Positions 2,876 to 64,000 of a DNA stretch of 64,000 bases are shown piece by piece (the stretch's first letter is position 1; each line of letters begins with the position of its first letter). This stretch comes from Escherichia phage vB_EcoM_Lh1B. The translations under genes and the position numbers were made by a program. The DNA lies in the sequence record OK428535.1; one strand, given 5' to 3'. The notes under the pieces are model-generated. The model was not told the DNA's origin and made no database searches. It saw only the letters and a list, made by a program, of their open reading frames with translations.

Positions 2876-3673
2876 ATGAAAGCGATTCACACCTTTCGCA
2901 TGACCGGCCAAACTGTTCTCGACATTGATGCGTACGAAGCCGCTAACTTCACCAAACCGACCAAGCTCTGGGATCGCCTGGTTAAGGTACTGCCGCAAAG
3001 CGGTGAGGTGCAGTTGGATTTTGTCATGGCATCGACGTTGGATAAGACAGTGGCAGTTATTTATACTGCTGACGGTGTGCAGAGTAAGAAGGACCTGGCA
3101 ATCGAAGATAAAGGCGGGCTGGGTTATCACTTGTTCCTGCACTGCGTAACCACTGCACCGATTTCAGCTGCGCTGGCGGGACAGTACGGTTTCGCGAATG
3201 CGTATTTCCTGGCACAGAAACTCGCCGTGAATGTTATTCCGGGTGACGTGACCACTTACCCTGAATACGTACAGCGTATCCTGCCAGAGCACTTCGCTGC
3301 AGACGACTACGATTTCAACGTGTTCCGTTTCGCATTGATCGGCGAATCGCGCGATCCAGAATACACCGTTGGCTTGCGTGCCTGTCTGCGTCACTCCGTT
3401 ATCTCTTCGGATGAAGGGATGTCGAATAACGTGAACGAAGTGTTCCCGATGATGCAAGTCGGTCCGTATATCACTTTCAACTCGTACATTCCGTTCCCGG
3501 CACAGATTCTGCCGCCGCAGAACGATAACAGTGNACNGCCAATCGCCGACAAGTATTCACTGCGTGCGAGCGAAGCAGTCGAAGTGATTAACGATCGTCG
3601 CTTTACATTGTCAGTGACCAGCGGCATCAGTGAACCGGAAGTTGCGGTCTCTCAGAGCCTGGATTTGATGTAA
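2876..3673 (+). CDS. hypothetical protein (265 aa), codon-biased, probably well expressed
   Basis: RBS AAGGAAAA upstream of ATG; optimal-codon bias leaves antisense shadow ORFs; terminator immediately downstream. Confidence 0.65.
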   Translation: MKAIHTFRMTGQTVLDIDAYEAANFTKPTKLWDRLVKVLPQSGEVQLDFVMASTLDKTVAVIYTADGVQSKKDLAIEDKGGLGYHLFLHCVTTAPISAALAGQYGFANAYFLAQKLAVNVIPGDVTTYPEYVQRILPEHFAADDYDFNVFRFALIGESRDPEYTVGLRACLRHSVISSDEGMSNNVNEVFPMMQVGPYITFNSYIPFPAQILPPQNDNSXXPIADKYSLRASEAVEVINDRRFTLSVTSGISEPEVAVSQSLDLM

Positions 3674-3681
3674 AAGTGTGC

Positions 3682-3715
3682 CTGGTCTCCTTGTGAGACC
3701 AGGTCTCTTTATTTT
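3682..3715 (+). terminator. rho-independent terminator
   Basis: Hairpin CTGGTCTC-loop-GAGACCAG followed by T-rich run. Confidence 0.6.
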
Positions 3716-3839
3716 AGCCCTCTAAACGCACTCACAACCTTCTAAAGCCTCTCTAACGGTAGAACGACCCTCTAAAGTGATAAAAGCTCTCAAAACGCGT
3801 TTGAGAGCGTTATAGAGGGTGTACTCTGAATAAAAATAA

Positions 3840-3870
3840 TTTCAGATATATATTACCTAGGTGATAGAAG
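3840..3870 (+). promoter_or_regulatory. early-promoter-like element, copy A (TTTCAGATATATATTACCTAGGTGA)
   Basis: Near-identical copies at 32872 and 52662; contains TATATTAC; lies about 45 nt upstream of an ATG. Confidence 0.5.
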
Positions 3871-3915
3871 ACAATCTATCAACTCAATCGACTATTAATC
3901 TAAAGGAGTATTACC

Positions 3916-4059
3916 ATGTTAACTCGTAACCATAAACGTGCCATCTTCGCCATCGTTGCTGTTGTTGCTTTCGCGGTACTGTCTATCACTGTAACTCAAG
4001 ATTACAACAAGTGCATCGATAACGGTAACTCTGTTGCCATGTGTACAGGTCGCGGCTAA
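3916..4059 (+). CDS. small membrane protein (47 aa)
   Basis: Preceded by conserved leader and RBS AAGGAG; hydrophobic helix (AIFAIVAVVAFAVL). Confidence 0.45.
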   Translation: MLTRNHKRAIFAIVAVVAFAVLSITVTQDYNKCIDNGNSVAMCTGRG

Positions 4060-4241: not shown

Positions 4242-4429
4242 TGGGTGTTTTAGTTAATTACGATGGTAAAAACGGAATNGTGCTTCGCGGCGTGGNAGAN
4301 AACTTATATGTAGNGGTGAATCCANAAACCNCAGAACGAACNTTTATNGTGGGGCCNAAAAGCGCTTTACCNAAGCCGGANTGGAAAGAAGAGNTGGNGA
4401 AGTTCCGTGGGGAANTNGGGAACAATTAG
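4241..4429 (+). CDS. hypothetical protein (62 aa; N-rich)
   Basis: ATG overlaps upstream stop; many ambiguous bases. Confidence 0.3.
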   Translation: MGVLVNYDGKNGXVLRGVXXNLYVXVNPXTXERXFXVGXKSALXKPXWKEEXXKFRGEXGNN

Positions 4430-4442
4430 TATAGATAATTTA

Positions 4443-4470
4443 ATACCACCTACGGGTGGTATTATTTTTT
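4443..4470 (+). terminator. rho-independent terminator
   Basis: ATACCACC-TACG-GGTGGTAT hairpin followed by TTTTTT. Confidence 0.6.
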
Positions 4471-8289: not shown

Positions 8290-10590
8290 ATGAAAGATAC
8301 CCGTATCGCTAGTCTGGACCAGCTGGTTCAGCAGGGCAATGCTCTGGTCGCTGCTGCCAAGGCAGGCTCTTCCGCTAATGACGTATGGCNNNCCGTNGCC
8401 NTTGTCGCCTCTNTACNTNAAAATGCTGCCGGCTTCACCAACCTGCGTGACACTGCTCAGCAGCACTACGAAGCTGTAAACCCTGGCAAAACCATGAGCC
8501 ACGCTGCCCAGGTTGCTTCTGCGATGATTCTGGCTGCTGCCGGTCACGAAGACGACTTCATGACCCGTGTTGCTGCCGAGAGCGCGAAGCCGGAATACGC
8601 CAGCTATATGCCGATCGCTATTTCTGGTGCAGCATCTCTGGCTGCTGACTACGGTAAAACTCCGCTGGTCGCAACCGAATACTACACCAACAAAGACCTG
8701 GACAAAAACCTGGGTCTGACCTGGACGCTGAACGTGCGTGCTCTGGAAACTCAATCCAAGTTTGCAGAAACCCTGTTCCCGACCATCACTGTGGACACCA
8801 ACGACGTCGGCATCACCGTTCGTACCAAAGTTACTACTGTAACTCGTGGTATCCTGAACGCCCTGCTGACCAAAGACGTGGTTGAAGACAACCGTCAGCC
8901 GCTGCATAACGCGCTGTCTAACCACAAAGTCCTGCAGGACGATGCTATCCGTATCGTACCTTACGTGATGGAAACCGGTGAGAACGCGAAGTTCTTCGTA
9001 TCCGAAGACATCATCGAAAACGAAAACGTTCAGCTGGGTCGTGTGCCGGCGTATCCGACCAACTACCTGNGCTTCTCTGAGCGTCGTCTGAACCTGTTCC
9101 AGCTGTCTGCCCATCCGGGTATCGTGCAGGAAGGTTACGATGAAACCGACGAAATCGCACCGGGTGCAGCGCTGGGNAGCCTGCTGCTGTCTGTGCGTAA
9201 GCCGACCGAAGAAGCGAAAGATGGCGCGCTGATCAAACTGAACGTACGCGACATGCAGTTCGCTACCTTCCAGCGTCCTCCTGAAGGCGATGGCCGTGAG
9301 CTGGTCCTGCAGTTCCGTCGCACTGTGTTCTCCCTGAACGCCAAGTCTCTGGACTGGAAAGGTGCTGAAATCCCGGCACTGGCCGCTCTGGCACAGAACG
9401 ATTACACCATTCGTTATTCCATGAACATCAGCATGTCTCTGTTCACCAACGGTCAGTTCTCTGGTCGTGTTGACGTGACTGCACCGTCTCTGGAAATCGA
9501 AGGTCTGTACGATGCAACTGGTACTGCTGTTGATATCGAAAGCGGCACCGGCAAAGTCATCATCGACAACCTGAAACTGGAGCTGCTGGGCTGGCGCTTC
9601 GACGGTACTCGTACCAACGAGAACCGGAGAACCCAGGGCCTTCTGCTCGACCCGATTTGGGAACAAGAGAACTACAAACTGCAGTACGGTTCTCCGATCA
9701 TGACCAAATCTCCGGTTGGCGTTGAATACGACGACACCGAACGTCTGGACGACCTCGTTTCTGCGGTTAACATCCGTAACGAAATGCTGGCTATCACTCA
9801 GACTCTGTCTTACACCGAAGCGGTTAAGAACGCAGCTGCGTCCATGATCACTCCGTGGGACAAACCTGCTATCCGCGGCCTGGGCCGTCACTGGGTTGCT
9901 CCGTGGTACAGCGAAAGCGACTACGAAGTGGACAAAGTGATCCAGTCTCTGGATACCAAAGATGCGCTCATCAACGCCCGTCAGGGTCTGGTACAGCGTA
10001 TCGGCGACCAGGTAACTCGTGCTATCCAGGATTCTCGTTTCATGCCGGCTCTGCGCCTGCTGACTGCGGACCCGAACGCACTGCCGAAAGTTGTTATCGC
10101 AACTGACGAACCGACTGCTGCAATGCTGCTGCTGGTTCAGGGTGACCAGCGTCTGCTGGGCGATCGCTACGAGTACGAAGTTATCACCACCAACGATGAC
10201 CGCTGGCGTGTGAAGAACGAAGCTGACGGCAGCTGGACTCGCCGCCTGCAGTGGGTTCTGAAAGTTCCAACCGCTGATGACGGTTCTTACTGTGTTCTGA
10301 ACTGGGGTAACCACTTCTGGTCTCCGATCATGGTAACCAACATCAACATCCAGCGTAACGGCGCTACCAGCAAAGAGCTGGCAGTACAGCCTCGTAACGC
10401 GCACATCTGCCACTGCCCGATCACTGGTCTGATCTGGATTAAAGGTATCACCAAGTTCGTGGAAGAGAAACTGGCGTTCAACGTCACTACTACTTCCAAC
10501 GGTACTGGCGGTACTAATGGCGGTAATGCGGGTGATGTTGGCGGCGGCGCTACCCAGCCAGGGACGGGNGGTGATGGCGCTGGCGGCTAA
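8290..10590 (+). CDS. putative major capsid protein (766 aa), highly expressed structural protein
   Basis: Very strong optimal-codon bias leaving a 715-aa antisense shadow ORF; size fits the ~750-aa capsid proteins of phiKZ-like phages; product call from context only. Confidence 0.45.
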   Translation: MKDTRIASLDQLVQQGNALVAAAKAGSSANDVWXXXAXVASXXXNAAGFTNLRDTAQQHYEAVNPGKTMSHAAQVASAMILAAAGHEDDFMTRVAAESAKPEYASYMPIAISGAASLAADYGKTPLVATEYYTNKDLDKNLGLTWTLNVRALETQSKFAETLFPTITVDTNDVGITVRTKVTTVTRGILNALLTKDVVEDNRQPLHNALSNHKVLQDDAIRIVPYVMETGENAKFFVSEDIIENENVQLGRVPAYPTNYLXFSERRLNLFQLSAHPGIVQEGYDETDEIAPGAALXSLLLSVRKPTEEAKDGALIKLNVRDMQFATFQRPPEGDGRELVLQFRRTVFSLNAKSLDWKGAEIPALAALAQNDYTIRYSMNISMSLFTNGQFSGRVDVTAPSLEIEGLYDATGTAVDIESGTGKVIIDNLKLELLGWRFDGTRTNENRRTQGLLLDPIWEQENYKLQYGSPIMTKSPVGVEYDDTERLDDLVSAVNIRNEMLAITQTLSYTEAVKNAAASMITPWDKPAIRGLGRHWVAPWYSESDYEVDKVIQSLDTKDALINARQGLVQRIGDQVTRAIQDSRFMPALRLLTADPNALPKVVIATDEPTAAMLLLVQGDQRLLGDRYEYEVITTNDDRWRVKNEADGSWTRRLQWVLKVPTADDGSYCVLNWGNHFWSPIMVTNINIQRNGATSKELAVQPRNAHICHCPITGLIWIKGITKFVEEKLAFNVTTTSNGTGGTNGGNAGDVGGGATQPGTXGDGAGG

Positions 10591-10621
10591 TAATCCGTAA
10601 GGATTACGTTGCCTAAGATTA

Positions 10622-10662
10622 GCTTACTCCCTTNGGGGNGNNAGNTTTTTNNTTTTTTNTNA
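10622..10662 (+). terminator. probable terminator after the capsid gene (N-containing)
   Basis: CTTACTCCCTT...GGGG...AG stem followed by long T-run; Ns obscure detail. Confidence 0.4.
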
Positions 10663-10673
10663 AAATTTNTANN

Positions 10674-10694
10674 TAGATATTATCTTAGGGAGAG
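10674..10694 (+). promoter_or_regulatory. promoter-like palindromic element, copy H (TAGATATTATCTTAGGGAG)
   Basis: Member of the AGATA-N-TATCT-TAGGGA family seen eight times. Confidence 0.4.
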
Positions 10695-10866: not shown

Positions 10867-10889
10867 TGAGATAGATATTATCTACGTGA
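10867..10889 (+). promoter_or_regulatory. promoter-like palindromic element, copy G (GAGATAGATATTATCTACGTGAA)
   Basis: Same motif family; upstream of gene 10899. Confidence 0.4.
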
Positions 10890-28670: not shown

Positions 28671-29131
28671 TGAAGATTATTACCATAGTGGGGCCAGACA
28701 CGGCTAACGGCAGGAAATATTCCACAGATATCCTCGCGCTTTATAACGAGCTGGACAAAAGCGAAATAGAAAGCTATCGAAAAGAGACGGGTATTAATGT
28801 CCGTTTTACGCCGGCTAAATCGTTAGCCGAGCGCTTCCGGGGTCGTTTACTGGCGGTCGTGGACGACGGTGTCTTGTATGGCTTTGCGCAATACCGCACG
28901 ATGACTGAAGAGGGTGTGACGATGATGTCGGTATCCTCACTGGTCGTTAGCAGCAGCGCACGTGGTAAAGGTTACGGCACCGCGTTGATGGATGCGGTAA
29001 AGAAATCCGCAACGGAAAAAGGGTGTACAGTTGTTCACCTGTCCGTGAACGCCGGTAACGCTGCCGCGAAGTCGCTCTACGACAAAGCTGGCTTTAAGGT
29101 AGGTGCTTACCAGATGTATTGGAGGGTGTGA
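28670..29131 (+). CDS. GNAT-family N-acetyltransferase (tandem paralogue 1)
   Basis: SARGKGYGTALMDAV and SLYDKAGFKV motifs; ATG overlaps upstream stop (TGATG). Confidence 0.65.
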   Translation: MKIITIVGPDTANGRKYSTDILALYNELDKSEIESYRKETGINVRFTPAKSLAERFRGRLLAVVDDGVLYGFAQYRTMTEEGVTMMSVSSLVVSSSARGKGYGTALMDAVKKSATEKGCTVVHLSVNAGNAAAKSLYDKAGFKVGAYQMYWRV

Positions 29132-31175: not shown

Positions 31176-31197
31176 GATAGATGTTATCTTAGGGAGA
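31172..31197 (+). promoter_or_regulatory. promoter-like palindromic element, copy D (GGATAGATGTTATCTTAGGGAG)
   Basis: Same motif family; upstream of gene 31292. Confidence 0.45.
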
Positions 31198-32789: not shown

Positions 32790-32828
32790 CCCTCTTACCT
32801 TCGGGTAAGAGGGCATTGTCTTTTTTTA
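32790..32828 (+). terminator. rho-independent terminator (UUCG loop)
   Basis: CCCTCTTACC-TTCG-GGTAAGAGGG followed by T7; same hairpin as at 5777. Confidence 0.7.
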
Positions 32829-32871
32829 CAGATCAGAACAGTCCTATGCTTTTTGCTTCCAGTCCACTAAA

Positions 32872-32902
32872 TTTCAGATATATATTACTTAGGTGAGAGT
32901 TG
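32872..32902 (+). promoter_or_regulatory. early-promoter-like element, copy B
   Basis: TTTCAGATATATATTACTTAGGTGA plus conserved leader into the RBS. Confidence 0.5.
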
Positions 32903-32947
32903 CTCGTAAACTCTCTAATCGACTATTAATCTAAAAGGAGTATTCTA

Positions 32948-33313
32948 ATGCGTTTTAAACATCAAACCGTTGTGTTGGCAAAGAAAGCATTTCTGGTTCG
33001 TCTCTCTTACATTATTNCTCGTGTCACTGCGAAGGATGTTACGCAGAAAGACATTGCATTGTTGGTAGGCNGNTNNCCNNCACAAANNTNTGNGNTTAAA
33101 AATGAACGCGAGAAAGCCGTGACTATCGAAACTCTGATGCGTGTTGCCGATACACTGCGCCTGAATTACGAAATCGTTTACCGTTCCATCAACGGCAAAT
33201 GCCGCCATAGCTTCAAAATTGAATCCTGCATCGACTACATGAATAACTGTCCTATCCGGGTACGAGAAACAGGACTTAAAGTCATGGCACGTAAACCTTC
33301 TGCAGTGATGTAG
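32948..33313 (+). CDS. XRE-family helix-turn-helix transcriptional regulator
   Basis: VTQKDIALLVG ... TIETLMRVADTLRLNYEIV fits the Cro/C1-type HTH pattern; N-containing. Confidence 0.5.
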   Translation: MRFKHQTVVLAKKAFLVRLSYIIXRVTAKDVTQKDIALLVGXXXXQXXXXKNEREKAVTIETLMRVADTLRLNYEIVYRSINGKCRHSFKIESCIDYMNNCPIRVRETGLKVMARKPSAVM

Positions 33314-39716: not shown

Positions 39717-39746
39717 CTTTTCAGATAGATGTTATTTTACTGAACC
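39717..39746 (+). promoter_or_regulatory. promoter-like element, copy E (TTTTCAGATAGATGTTATTTTACTGAACC)
   Basis: Same motif family; 26 nt upstream of gene 39772. Confidence 0.45.
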
Positions 39747-48120: not shown

Positions 48121-48146
48121 CAGATAGATGTTATCTCAGTGAACCT
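48118..48146 (+). promoter_or_regulatory. promoter-like element, copy F (TTTCAGATAGATGTTATCTCAGTGAACC)
   Basis: Same motif family; about 55 nt upstream of gene 48200. Confidence 0.45.
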
Positions 48147-50143: not shown

Positions 50144-50569
50144 ATGTTAACCATAGACGTAGCTATCTCTATCGAGCTTCAACGCATCGGTGTAGGTACA
50201 CTAAAACTTCGTTATCGTGATTTACCGCATTACAACAAGATGTTTGATGTTGGGGTGATAAAGTTTTATAACCGGTACGGGCCAAGAGAACTGTGTCTAT
50301 GGTTTGTTGAGTTAGCGATAACCTACGGCGAGTTTTATCATCCTAACATACCGCATGTCAGACACGTGTCAAGNGGGCACCTGGAAACTTCCAGAGAGTT
50401 CTGTCAGCGATTGTATAGCGCGATGGAGGAGTCCGCACCCATCGACTTTGACGTACCACCTGAACCGTTATTAATCGACCATGAAGGAGAAGCCGATGTC
50501 TATTTCATTACAGGGATTGACCATTCACGAGATTCAGAAATATTTACTCGAGGGCGGGAAACTGACTGA
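50144..50569 (+). CDS. hypothetical protein (141 aa)
   Basis: First ATG of ORF-track entry 50138-50569. Confidence 0.45.
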   Translation: MLTIDVAISIELQRIGVGTLKLRYRDLPHYNKMFDVGVIKFYNRYGPRELCLWFVELAITYGEFYHPNIPHVRHVSXGHLETSREFCQRLYSAMEESAPIDFDVPPEPLLIDHEGEADVYFITGIDHSRDSEIFTRGRETD

Positions 50570-51268: not shown

Positions 51269-51346
51269 ATTAGAGGTTGGCAGGCTGTTCGTTAATCCTT
51301 AAAAAACAACAGTTTCAAATTAGTTACGACCATAAGGAGTATTAAA

Positions 51347-52532: not shown

Positions 52533-52605
52533 AAGGCGTTGAAGGACACTCTACTCCACATCAACTAGGATGACGCTTATCCCAAGGGTAGCGAATAAAG
52601 CAGCA

Positions 52606-52642
52606 CCCTACTCCCGAAGGAGTAGGGTTTCTTCTTTTTTGT
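52606..52642 (+). terminator. rho-independent terminator
   Basis: CCCTACTCC-CGAA-GGAGTAGGG followed by TTTCTTCTTTTTTG. Confidence 0.7.
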
Positions 52643-52661
52643 CTAGTGTGATTACAATTAT

Positions 52662-52692
52662 TTTCAGATATATATTACTTAGGTGAGAGTTA
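52662..52692 (+). promoter_or_regulatory. early-promoter-like element, copy C
   Basis: TTTCAGATATATATTACTTAGGTGA plus conserved leader into the RBS. Confidence 0.5.
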
Positions 52693-52738
52693 ACCATTAA
52701 CTCTTATCTAATCGACCATTATCTTAAGGAGTTTTAAC

Positions 52739-53185
52739 ATGTACATTCTGAATAACGAACTTACTAAGTACGCTAGCAAAAACCCGANTATGATTTNTTT
52801 NCTAATCGTGATGGCGGCCAACAAACAAGACCCTAGCGAATTCACTACTGAGGTCTTCGAAGAGATTATCGCTAACGCCAAAGAAGCCACGTTCCAGACC
52901 ACAGNGCCTACTCGCGACGAGTTCCCCCTAGGTGAAGCCGGCGATGTAATGTTTAACGACATGGTTGCTTCGTACTACATCAATAGACGTGGTATGGAAA
53001 TCGAATACGATGAACTTCCTACTAGCAGCTTTGCTGAAATGATTCGTGATTATCGTCGTCAAGTTGTCTCTGACGATATCGTAAAGAAATACATGGCACA
53101 AATCAGCCCATTCAGTCTTGAATTCGAAAACCGCGCGGTTGCCTTAGCAACACATCGCCTGCGTTTAGAAAAAGAAGTACACTAA
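52739..53185 (+). CDS. hypothetical protein (148 aa)
   Basis: Driven by conserved leader and AAGGAG RBS. Confidence 0.55.
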   Translation: MYILNNELTKYASKNPXMIXXLIVMAANKQDPSEFTTEVFEEIIANAKEATFQTTXPTRDEFPLGEAGDVMFNDMVASYYINRRGMEIEYDELPTSSFAEMIRDYRRQVVSDDIVKKYMAQISPFSLEFENRAVALATHRLRLEKEVH

Positions 53186-56171: not shown

Positions 56172-57083
56172 ATGAAACCTTTAAACAAAACGTCCGATCA
56201 GCTGGTTCTGGATTTTATTAATGAGAAAAACCCAGACGCAGAACTGGAACTTTCTAAAATAACGCTCGGCACACCGACCCCTATTATCGATGAAGGTGCC
56301 GATCGCAATACCAGCATGACCCTGACTGCGAAAAAGAACTCCGGGTACATCGGTACTCAGGACGTGACTTATAATCGCCTGGAAGGCGGTGCGCTGTTCC
56401 GNAACGTAACGGCATACCTCGACGTTAAACTGCCGAAAACCACCACAGACCTGCTGACGACCCTGAACACCCAATACGGATTGAAGCTGACCGAAGACGA
56501 TATCGTTCCGGCGGCTATTCCGGAAAATACCAACCCGCCGCTGACTAACCCGAACGATCCGGACCCAGCACCGGTTGACCATGTCATTACCTTCAAAGAA
56601 GACTGCTACGCTTATCTGGGCAGCATCCCGGTTAAAATCGGTGCTAAGCCTCAGGTTGGTGAACGTCTGAGTCTGGTGGTAACACAAACCAAGCTCGACG
56701 GCCTGGTTTACCCAGATGGTCCAAGCGAAGCGAAGGGTCAGGGCTACATCTACTCTTACGGTGTAGACTGCACAGCAATCGCAGCATTCCTGAAAGTACA
56801 GGCGAAAGGTGTTATCGCTGGCGACTCTGCATTCCCGGTTGAGCTGAATAAAGTTGTGCCGGAACTGTGGGTTGCATCTGATGAGCCTGCGGATTATAAC
56901 CTGAAAGGTGCTAACGTGTTGTACGTTGGTTCTACTACTGACGATGGCACTGCTTCAGGCGACGATCCTAAGAAACCGGTTGAAGGTGCAAACACTGCTT
57001 ACAACCAGGTTCTGCTGCTGCAGCTGGATGACACTCTGTGCACCAACTTCCAGGGCGTCATGTACCTGCACTTTAATGCCTAA
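56172..57083 (+). CDS. tandem-array paralogue P4 (303 aa), codon-optimised
   Basis: INEKNP...ADRNT...YNRLEGGALF and C-terminal YLHFNA; strong optimal-codon bias; terminator downstream. Confidence 0.7.
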   Translation: MKPLNKTSDQLVLDFINEKNPDAELELSKITLGTPTPIIDEGADRNTSMTLTAKKNSGYIGTQDVTYNRLEGGALFXNVTAYLDVKLPKTTTDLLTTLNTQYGLKLTEDDIVPAAIPENTNPPLTNPNDPDPAPVDHVITFKEDCYAYLGSIPVKIGAKPQVGERLSLVVTQTKLDGLVYPDGPSEAKGQGYIYSYGVDCTAIAAFLKVQAKGVIAGDSAFPVELNKVVPELWVASDEPADYNLKGANVLYVGSTTDDGTASGDDPKKPVEGANTAYNQVLLLQLDDTLCTNFQGVMYLHFNA

Positions 57084-63137: not shown

Positions 63138-64000
63138 ATGGGGTTGTATACAGAACCTTCAATGGAACTGCTCTGCCAACAAATTGTGCGTGACAATCCC
63201 GGTTTAGCAGGAAAAATCACCGCTGACTCCATTGGGGTCAGGGGNGTTCCTGTTGCGAAAAACGTTAACGGACGAAACACACAGATTACGTTGGTAGGAA
63301 AACCCGGTAAAGGATTTGCTGGGGAAATAACGGTATATTACGACCGGTTGAATCTGGCCAGTCTATTTAAGTCTGGCCCAAATATGGTGAGTATTCCACG
63401 TAGCGNACAAACCCATGCGGAAGNGTTACCGGCGTTCAATGAATTGAACGGGTTNAACTTAACCGCGAGTGATATCACCAGTCCAAACGTTGCATTAATG
63501 AAATACGCTACGCCGGAAACTGTAACTCTGACGGCGCACGCTAACTCCTTGTGTTATACCGGGTCATGCAAGATGACCTATGTTTACGAACCGATTGCGA
63601 TGTATCCGAAGTCGGGTCCTGGGCCAAAAGGATTAATGGCTGGTAATGAGTTATACGGATTCTTTGGGCTGGTAAGCGCGGAAGAGTTATTCACATCTGA
63701 TGAAATGGTGTATGCCCTCTATAACGGCACCACCTGGCCTAACCGCTACGCTATCAAGTGGCTCAAATTCTTTCTGAATGGGGNGGTAGTGTTTGTTCCG
63801 ACCCGTGCGNTTTGCAACGTTACCTGGGCAGACCTGTACAACAAGGGTGCAATATTTGATTCCGGAGACGCAGGACCTCGCCCGAAGTCGACTTACACAC
63901 CTGTCGATGTTGAACAGTTGAAATACATGGTAAAACGGGATGATGAAGGAACGCATTATTTCAGAATGTCTATCCCGTATTACACCGAGAACGCCGCCGC
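63138..64000 (+). CDS. tandem-array paralogue P11 (partial, runs off window end): N-terminal module plus GPGPK-motif domain
   Basis: IVRDNPGL...GRNT...YYDRLNLASLF then YPKSGPGPKGLMAGN...GFFG; no stop within window. Confidence 0.65.
   Translation, partial: MGLYTEPSMELLCQQIVRDNPGLAGKITADSIGVRXVPVAKNVNGRNTQITLVGKPGKGFAGEITVYYDRLNLASLFKSGPNMVSIPRSXQTHAEXLPAFNELNGXNLTASDITSPNVALMKYATPETVTLTAHANSLCYTGSCKMTYVYEPIAMYPKSGPGPKGLMAGNELYGFFGLVSAEELFTSDEMVYALYNGTTWPNRYAIKWLKFFLNGXVVFVPTRAXCNVTWADLYNKGAIFDSGDAGPRPKSTYTPVDVEQLKYMVKRDDEGTHYFRMSIPYYTENAA

Follow-up and report, generated by a model that had tools for sequence, protein, structure and literature searches.

Putative early promoters coupled to a 5' stem-loop and a ribosome-site box in an SPN3US-like Escherichia jumbo phage

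Background

The window analysed here, a stretch of 64,000 nucleotides (nt) from Escherichia phage vB_EcoM_Lh1B [GenBank: OK428535.1], contains three copies of an element in which an identical 25-nt core is followed by a hairpin and by a leader that runs into a ribosome-binding site (RBS) and a start codon. A preliminary description of this DNA, made from its letters, compared the core with the early promoters of phiKZ-like phages. Are these elements promoters and, if so, which RNA polymerase reads them? Does the hairpin act as RNA or as DNA? Or, is the repeat simply a by-product of gene duplication? The answer that we favour, and consider reasonably probable, is that the copies are the starts of early transcription units of a nucleus-forming jumbo phage of the SPN3US type, each made up of a phiKZ-type promoter, a protective 5' stem-loop and a separate box that precedes the Shine-Dalgarno (SD) sequence.

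Nucleus-forming jumbo phages begin infection with an injected polymerase, and very little is known of its promoter choice beyond phiKZ, 201phi2-1 and AR9. Early motifs of the phiKZ type are AT-rich, with their centre some 10 bp before the start site (PMC7598289; PMC11512511), and show further conservation near -20 and -30 (PMC8244752; PMC11512511). According to a review, early-promoter motifs have been predicted bioinformatically for every polymerase-encoding jumbo phage (PMC7598289), and the putative promoter described here therefore belongs to a known kind. SPN3US is a relative of phiKZ in which virion proteomics identified gp42, gp218, gp240, gp241 and gp244 as subunits of the virion RNA polymerase (vRNAP); gp35 and gp77 are subunits of its non-virion RNA polymerase (nvRNAP) (PMC5105663).

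Between positions 3000 and 9000 the window has an identity of 97–98% with Salmonella jumbo phages of the SPN3US type, which are about 240 kb long, and of 60–90% with a number of phages of Erwinia, Cronobacter and Proteus. Genes for RNA polymerase beta subunits are annotated in the SPN3US reference genome. The identity to SPN3US, taken with the published proteomics, places this phage among those that package a multisubunit vRNAP.

The elements provide a testable model of early promoters in the SPN3US/Erwinia group, with two classes of about 40 nt and an invariant GGTGA that would be transcribed first. One class is coupled to a 5'-terminal RNA hairpin that appears to be under selection, and a separate conserved box is found at the ribosome sites of early operons. 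Being compact and portable, such elements could be put to use for early expression when jumbo phages of Salmonella or Erwinia are engineered, and would offer a direct handle on the stability and translation of early mRNA. For this phage group, the literature searched contained no account of an architecture with two classes, of an invariant GGTGA within the transcript, of a 5'-terminal hairpin coupled to the promoter or of a box before the SD sequence. The promoter being of a known kind, the overall surprise is moderate.

Results and Discussion

Three cassettes share a core, a hairpin and a leader

Coordinates are positions of the window unless another genome is named, and all three cassettes are on the + strand. 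The 25-nt core, TTTCAGATATATATTACYTAGGTGA, is present exactly at 3840–3864, 32872–32896 and 52662–52686, as the preliminary description had it, where 100 shuffles gave an expectation of 0. Allowing up to three mismatches revealed no additional site in the window. When the semi-conserved positions upstream of the core are included, the promoter-like elements span 3829–3864 (copy 1), 32861–32896 (copy 2) and 52651–52686 (copy 3). We refer to these as class A.

Each core leads into a hairpin, and the three pairs of arms first reported were confirmed. In copy 1 the hairpin is at 3862–3881, with arms GATAG (3863–3867) and CTATC (3876–3880), 7 bp as folded and -6.6 kcal/mol (z = -2.4). The hairpin of copy 2 is at 32895–32915, with arms GAGAGTT (32895–32901) and AACTCTC (32909–32915) and an energy of -8.8 kcal/mol (z = -3.8). 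That of copy 3 is at 52686–52704, with arms AGAGTTAA (52686–52693) and TTAACTCT (52697–52704), and is the most stable at -12.4 kcal/mol (z = -5.2); as folded it comprises 12 bp over 52682–52708. These energies are for the first 26–29 nt after the core, folded alone, and the z values are relative to dinucleotide shuffles.

Beyond the hairpin, the order AATCGACYATTA, AAGGAG and ATG is the same in 3 of 3 copies. The leader box is AATCGACTATTA in copy 1 (3886–3897) and copy 2 (32917–32928), and AATCGACCATTA in copy 3 (52710–52721). It is followed by the SD sequence GGAG (3905–3908, 32937–32940 and 52728–52731, respectively) and by the ATG of a 47-residue open reading frame (ORF) at 3916–4059, of a gene for a Cro/C1-type helix-turn-helix (HTH) protein starting at 32948, and of an ORF at 52739–53185. 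The leader reported earlier to run into the RBS and ATG is thus present in every copy, while the consensus written for it is exact in copy 1 only: copy 2 fits with 3 mismatches, and copy 3 is left unmatched unless an indel is introduced. Folding predicts the leader and SD sequence to be unstructured, and a structure that sequesters the SD sequence was therefore rejected. The first genes of the class A cassettes are small and belong to unrelated PHROG families, one of them encoding the HTH regulator. Since these families are unrelated, the repeat is not a by-product of gene duplication.

The promoter element belongs to a family with two classes

The SPN3US reference and the window were scanned with the pattern ATA[GT]AT[AG]TTA[CT]. 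There were 19 matches in SPN3US and 8 in the window, all on the + strand, and nearly all of these promoter-like sites are intergenic, just 5' of an RBS and ATG and codirectional with the gene that follows. Class A sites (cAGATATATATTACyTAGGTGAG followed by a hairpin) are at 56296, 65415, 94241, 113988, 165689 and 223279 in SPN3US, with a variant at 4429; in the window, they match the pattern at 3846, 32878 and 52668. Class B (AGATAGATRTTATyt, then GnGA, usually without an immediate hairpin) accounts for about 12 SPN3US sites and has only 15–17 nt from the motif to the SD sequence. In the window, class B sites are present on the + strand as NTAGATATTAT at 10673–10683 (the first base is N; the equivalent in SPN3US is at 72488), as ATAGATATTAT at 10871–10881, upstream of the operon of gp76 and the nvRNAP beta-N subunit (gp77), and as ATAGATGTTAT at 31177–31187, 39725–39735 and 48124–48134. 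The 14-base class B pattern was uninformative when searched in viral contigs, with unrelated contigs among the matches listed, and class B was scanned in related loci instead.

In related phages, the exact 19-nt core ATATATATTACYTAGGTGA was found at 43 loci on about 14 contigs of 107–247 kb plus one 7-kb fragment. It occurs in 3–6 copies per genome in related Salmonella and Erwinia phages, phiEaH2 and Huxley included, and 45 distinct instances were collected. The AT-rich element ATATATATTAC is invariant in the three window copies and in the 45 instances from relatives. Conservation extends some 17 nt further upstream, to A-17, T-15 and A-12..-10 relative to the start of ATATAT; these positions, and the TTTCAG immediately upstream, are kept in 43–46 of 46 class A instances, which is the conservation expected near -20 and -30. 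The 25-nt core is then the best-conserved part of a putative promoter of about 40 nt, A.T..AAA..TTTCAG-ATATATATTAC-YTAGGTGA.

The core itself varies at orthologous sites between the thymidylate kinase gene tmk and the HTH gene, the locus of copy 2. It reads ATATATTTTAC in Asesino, Stratton and phiEaH2, ATAGATATTAC-CTACATGAG in pEa_SNUABM_29, CTTAGTGAG in MET_P1 and CTTAAGTGAG in SPAsTU. Exact-pattern scans therefore undercount the family.

Which polymerase would read these sites? In SPN3US, the class B site at 28971 is directly upstream of nvRNAP genes gp34/35, and two more are 5' of gp76-gp77. Because nvRNAP genes need to be transcribed before nvRNAP exists, class B sites are best read as promoters for the injected polymerase. 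Class A sites, by the consensus that they have in common with class B, are best read in the same way.

Comparison with known early promoters

The preliminary description named TATATTAC, contained in the core, as the early consensus of phiKZ-like phages, and the phiKZ sequence supports this. There are 7 TATATTAC sites in the first 50 kb of phiKZ, all on the + strand, all intergenic and with common flanks tttaAGAnnTATATTACtaa..G. One is upstream of the shell gene PHIKZ054, which carries an early motif according to Wicke et al. (PMC8244752). One intergenic phiKZ site has the 13-mer AGATATATATTAC, identical to the class A copies of the window, and another reads TATATTAC-N3-GGTGA. By itself TATATTAC is not significant in the window, where it was found 4 times against 1.6 expected. 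The fourth occurrence (63334–63341) is in a coding-like context without conservation of its flanks, and is most likely due to chance.

Like the early promoters of phiKZ, the elements described here have an AT-rich, TATATTAC-bearing sequence with T-rich and A-rich conservation upstream, and they are intergenic and codirectional with small genes of unknown function in phages with homologous vRNAP subunits. Unlike in phiKZ, the conserved block continues through an invariant YTAGGTGA into the presumed transcript and is coupled to a hairpin, there are only 3–6 exact copies per genome, and there is a second class (ATAGATRTTAT). The early promoters of Pseudomonas phage 201phi2-1 are similar in being few (six mapped), all before hypothetical proteins, and in having an AT-rich motif about 10 bp upstream of the start with conservation at -20 and -30; they differ in their host, and neither a 5'-terminal hairpin nor a leader box is reported at them (PMC11512511). 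Promoters of the T7 group are also long and near-invariant, reach the first transcribed bases and are used many times per genome, but they serve a single-subunit polymerase family and have no sequence relation to the elements found here.

From the published distance between motif and start, together with the spacing seen in class B, transcription would start at the GG(T)G that follows the core, which in copy 1 is the GGTG at 3860–3863 (+) and in copies 2 and 3 is at 32892–32895 and 52682–52685, respectively.

Pairing in the 5' hairpin is under selection

In most of the 45 instances a hairpin comes right after GGTGA, and its stem sequence, stem length and loop size differ between copies. The stems are unrelated: AACTT/AAGTT, AGATTA/TAATCT, GAGAGTT/AACTCTC, GTGAGAG/CTCTCAC, GCATTGA/TCAATGC, GAGGAT/ATCCTC and GATAG/CTATC. 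Invariant GGTGAG, the putative initially transcribed sequence, always forms one arm. Among 21 non-redundant copies the mean z was -1.93, with z < -2 in 10, and in 21 of 21 folds the first paired base was nt 1–4 counted from the first G of GGTGA, the presumed RNA 5' end. Over 30 nt, the mean minimum free energy of class A was -7.3 kcal/mol, compared with -3.5 for class B (p = 0.007) and -3.7 for random 30-mers. Chimeras made from the 5' half of one copy and the 3' half of a different copy averaged -3.55 against the native -7.3, and none of 2000 permutations reached the native mean.

Orthologs tell the same story. At the tmk-HTH locus of seven phages, the stem is kept with seven different loops (gctcgta, actacta, gtcgtta, gttggttg, gtacattg, cacatcga and gataacaa). 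In pEa_SNUABM_29 and SPAsTU paired substitutions have changed GAGAGTT/AACTCTC to GAGCATT/AATGCTT and GCGTT/AACGC. Between the chimera and permutation controls and these compensatory changes, pairing is conserved and sequence is free.

The preliminary description had argued for a selected RNA structure from compensatory changes among the three window copies, and had named conservation of the stem in related phages as a check. Folding of each copy and comparison of orthologs show the pairing to be kept in those phages, and the 45 instances, the controls and the tmk-HTH orthologs bear out selection on pairing. The original argument was less secure than its conclusion: copies 2 and 3 share most of the 5' arm (GAGAGTT), so the three copies alone provide about one independent change. 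We conclude that the stem pairing is selected, and that the structure is conserved in kind and position and not column by column. A column-wise covarying motif of the Rfam type was considered and rejected, as register, stem and loop vary, no Rfam family matched in the window, and alignment pairing was that of shuffles (see below).

A leader box at ribosome sites

In SPN3US, 11 of 41 + strand matches to CGACYAT are at most 40 nt from an RBS and ATG, compared with 1.3 for permuted motifs. Four of these 11 boxes precede internal genes of class A operons that have no promoter of their own, and one more comes after a class B site. Promoter-less CGACCAT boxes are likewise present in the window at 51327–51333 (+) and at 50476–50482, each immediately followed by the AAGGAG-ATG of an internal gene. 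As internal genes of early operons have the box too, it is part of the ribosome-site region and not of the promoter.

Its spacing differs between phages. In copies from Erwinia phages the box adjoins the SD sequence (GACYATCAAGGA, 1 nt), and in Salmonella phages there are 5–8 nt between them. In SPAsTU an extra gene of 150 residues is present between the class A promoter and the HTH gene; the box has stayed with the HTH gene, and the promoter and hairpin now serve the inserted gene. A recognisable box is present in 21 of 46 class A leaders. As to its role, we can offer only the guess that CGACYAT enhances translation initiation or is recognised by a factor acting on early mRNA.

What would the cassette do?

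The favoured model runs as follows. The injected multisubunit vRNAP would read the promoter of about 40 nt and initiate at GG(T)G, some 10 nt downstream of the middle of the AT-rich element. The first RNA nucleotides, GGUGAG..., would pair with the copy-specific 3' arm to form a 5'-terminal stem-loop. This stem may hide the RNA 5' end from 5'-end-dependent decay of the RppH/RNase E type and so stabilise early mRNAs. An unstructured leader would follow, with the CGACYAT box placed just 5' of a strong SD sequence (AAGGAG).

With only the pairing conserved, and sequence, length and loop free, the hairpin most likely acts physically. Conservation of pairing alone, at what would be the extreme 5' end, appears to fit a physical role better than a protein site, a DNA hairpin of the N4 type or an attenuator, and the 5' stem-loop probably protects the mRNA. 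Reportedly, a 5'-terminal stem-loop in the ompA 5' untranslated region (UTR) stabilises its mRNA (Emory, Bouvet and Belasco, 1992). The hairpins described here are similar to those of the ompA type in their predicted position a few nt from the 5' end and in that structure matters and sequence does not. They differ in having a 5' arm fixed by the initially transcribed sequence of the promoter, in belonging to a cassette that recurs across a phage clade, and in that stabilisation is putative here.

Several observations weigh against this reading. A convincing hairpin is missing from about 5 of the 21 non-redundant copies, early-type sites of class B manage without one, and the early-type sites in the first 50 kb of phiKZ mostly lack such a hairpin. 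It follows from the last of these that the hairpin is unneeded for virion-polymerase transcription in general and is a trait of the SPN3US/Erwinia lineage. The role as stabiliser is argued from position and conservation pattern alone. No transcript mapping for the SPN3US group was found in the literature searched, and the start site, timing and polymerase are thus assigned from homology. Finally, a covariance model (R1) was built from a 24-sequence ungapped alignment and 49 matches were aligned to it; in this fixed register 61.7% of cells were paired, the same as in shuffles, with no excess pairing. A MAFFT alignment of the tmk-HTH orthologs was also ungapped and mis-registered. Because the hairpins differ in register, a fixed-register test cannot see them, and the covariation signal depends on the folding of each copy and on the chimera controls.

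Alternative explanations

Could the promoter be as proposed and the hairpin act instead on the vRNAP as it transcribes? In this case the hairpin would aid promoter escape or RNA displacement, cause pausing or attenuation, or confer resistance to termination like the put sites of HK022. The hairpin would form from the first 20–30 nt of RNA as the polymerase leaves the promoter, with the invariant transcribed GGTGAG as one arm in every case. The leader of the SPN3US copy at 165689 includes a canonical terminator, and phiKZ and 201phi2-1 provide documented cases of premature termination in 5' UTRs (PMC10914365; PMC11512511). Against it, the stems are short and AU-rich, and no loop or bulge that a polymerase might recognise is conserved. 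Sites of class B and of phiKZ function with no hairpin, and terminators bound the class A operons with no reading-through. We regard such a role as unlikely, if the least so of the alternatives. An intrinsic terminator or attenuator as the identity of the hairpin was rejected: a T-run (4 or more T within the 6 nt that follow) comes after only 1 of 19 hairpins, and no terminator-like call fell on any of the three window hairpins.

The SPN3US copy deserves its own description. Between 165689 and 165790 of that genome, outside the window, a GC-rich canonical terminator (GGCTACCttcgGGTAGCC plus a T-run) separates the 5' hairpin from the leader box, which points to a short RNA derived from the 5' UTR, or to an attenuator, as reported in phiKZ. 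The short 5' UTR-derived RNAs of phiKZ and 201phi2-1 (PMC10914365; PMC11512511) are similarly structured RNAs at the start of phage transcripts; the three window copies differ from them in having no terminator in the leader.

A second alternative is that the hairpin, CGACYAT or both are a tag for a protein specific to early mRNA, such as a repressor or nuclease like RegA/RegB or a factor that routes mRNA from vesicle to ribosome. The strong enrichment of the box just before ribosome sites of early-type operons, internal genes included, is consistent with a tag, and so is its retention from Salmonella to Erwinia phages despite an SD spacing of 5–8 nt in the former and 1 nt in the latter. In addition, chimalliviruses must move mRNA between compartments. 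Yet neither sequence nor loop nor register is conserved in the hairpin, which argues against its specific recognition by a protein, no candidate protein has been identified, and the box is recognisable in under half of the class A leaders. A tag therefore seems improbable, and the same doubt attaches to the broader proposal that the hairpin and CGACYAT form a dedicated post-transcriptional signature of injected-polymerase mRNAs in SPN3US- and Erwinia-type nucleus-forming phages, read by a phage or host factor. If that proposal were true, the early-mRNA regulon would be set by RNA features and not by the promoter alone, and these RNAs would be privileged, through protection from phage-induced RNA decay or hand-over from the early-infection vesicle to ribosomes, or would be switched off on schedule.

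Might the element work as DNA? It could be an operator or cruciform for a regulator, for example the HTH protein encoded behind copy 2, or a hairpin promoter in the style of phage N4 (PMC4496689). In its favour, class B has a partial dyad, AGATA-N5-TATCT, as does copy 1 (TTACCTAGGTGA), and an HTH gene comes first in one cassette, but the dyads are imperfect and are lost in copies where Y is T, and stems containing G-U pairs fit RNA and not DNA pairing. In N4 a single-subunit polymerase recognises a DNA hairpin that has a defined stem and loop and is placed upstream of the start. What the two systems have in common is a small hairpin at early promoters used by an injected phage polymerase; here, in contrast, it is downstream of the -10-like element, its loops of 3–8 nt are variable and have no conserved bases, and the polymerase is multisubunit and not N4-like. 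An N4-type promoter was rejected on these grounds, and a DNA-level function in general is very unlikely.

Equally hard to credit are promoters other than early vRNAP ones, read by the host sigma-70 polymerase or, at middle times, by the non-virion phage polymerase: the AT-rich core does contain a TATATT like a -10 hexamer, but no + strand sigma-70-type match overlies any copy, no TTGACA-like -35 is conserved at the right distance (a host promoter was rejected for these two reasons), sibling class B sites precede the nvRNAP genes themselves, and the motif fits the phiKZ early consensus and not the middle (TACT at -22) or late (TATG) one.

Surroundings of the cassettes and minor observations

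A terminator-like hairpin is present 35–135 nt upstream of each class A copy, on the + strand at 3680–3704 (copy 1), 32790–32813 (copy 2) and 52605–52628 (copy 3, bidirectional). Perfect 10-bp hairpins with flanking T-runs on either strand, at 4441–4464 and 52605–52628, resemble bidirectional terminators and delimit the small class A operons. Between the upstream terminator and copy 1, the region 3716–3800 has 4–5 direct repeats of CCYTCTAAA(G/C) spaced 20–30 nt apart, and an inverted repeat at 3783–3811 reads as a minus-strand terminator.

Just past the major capsid gene there is a pair of class B sites (AGATAGATATTATCT) at 10673–10683 and 10869–10883, 198 nt apart. The pair brackets a tiny ORF and is followed by the operon of gp76 and gp77; part of its first site is masked by N. 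There are 259 N bases in the window, in clusters (for example 10570–10680, 32977–33090, 4260–4440 and 52768–52802), some inside the genes that follow the cassettes; sequence quality is low in these places and ORF translations are broken.

Some class B or intermediate sites are followed by a hairpin of another type. These include the sites at 31177 and 48124 (92542 and 109895 in SPN3US) and 3 related loci, and the loop of this hairpin has a conserved string like AAATTTACG, as in gacgtgcaaaaattacgtttc.

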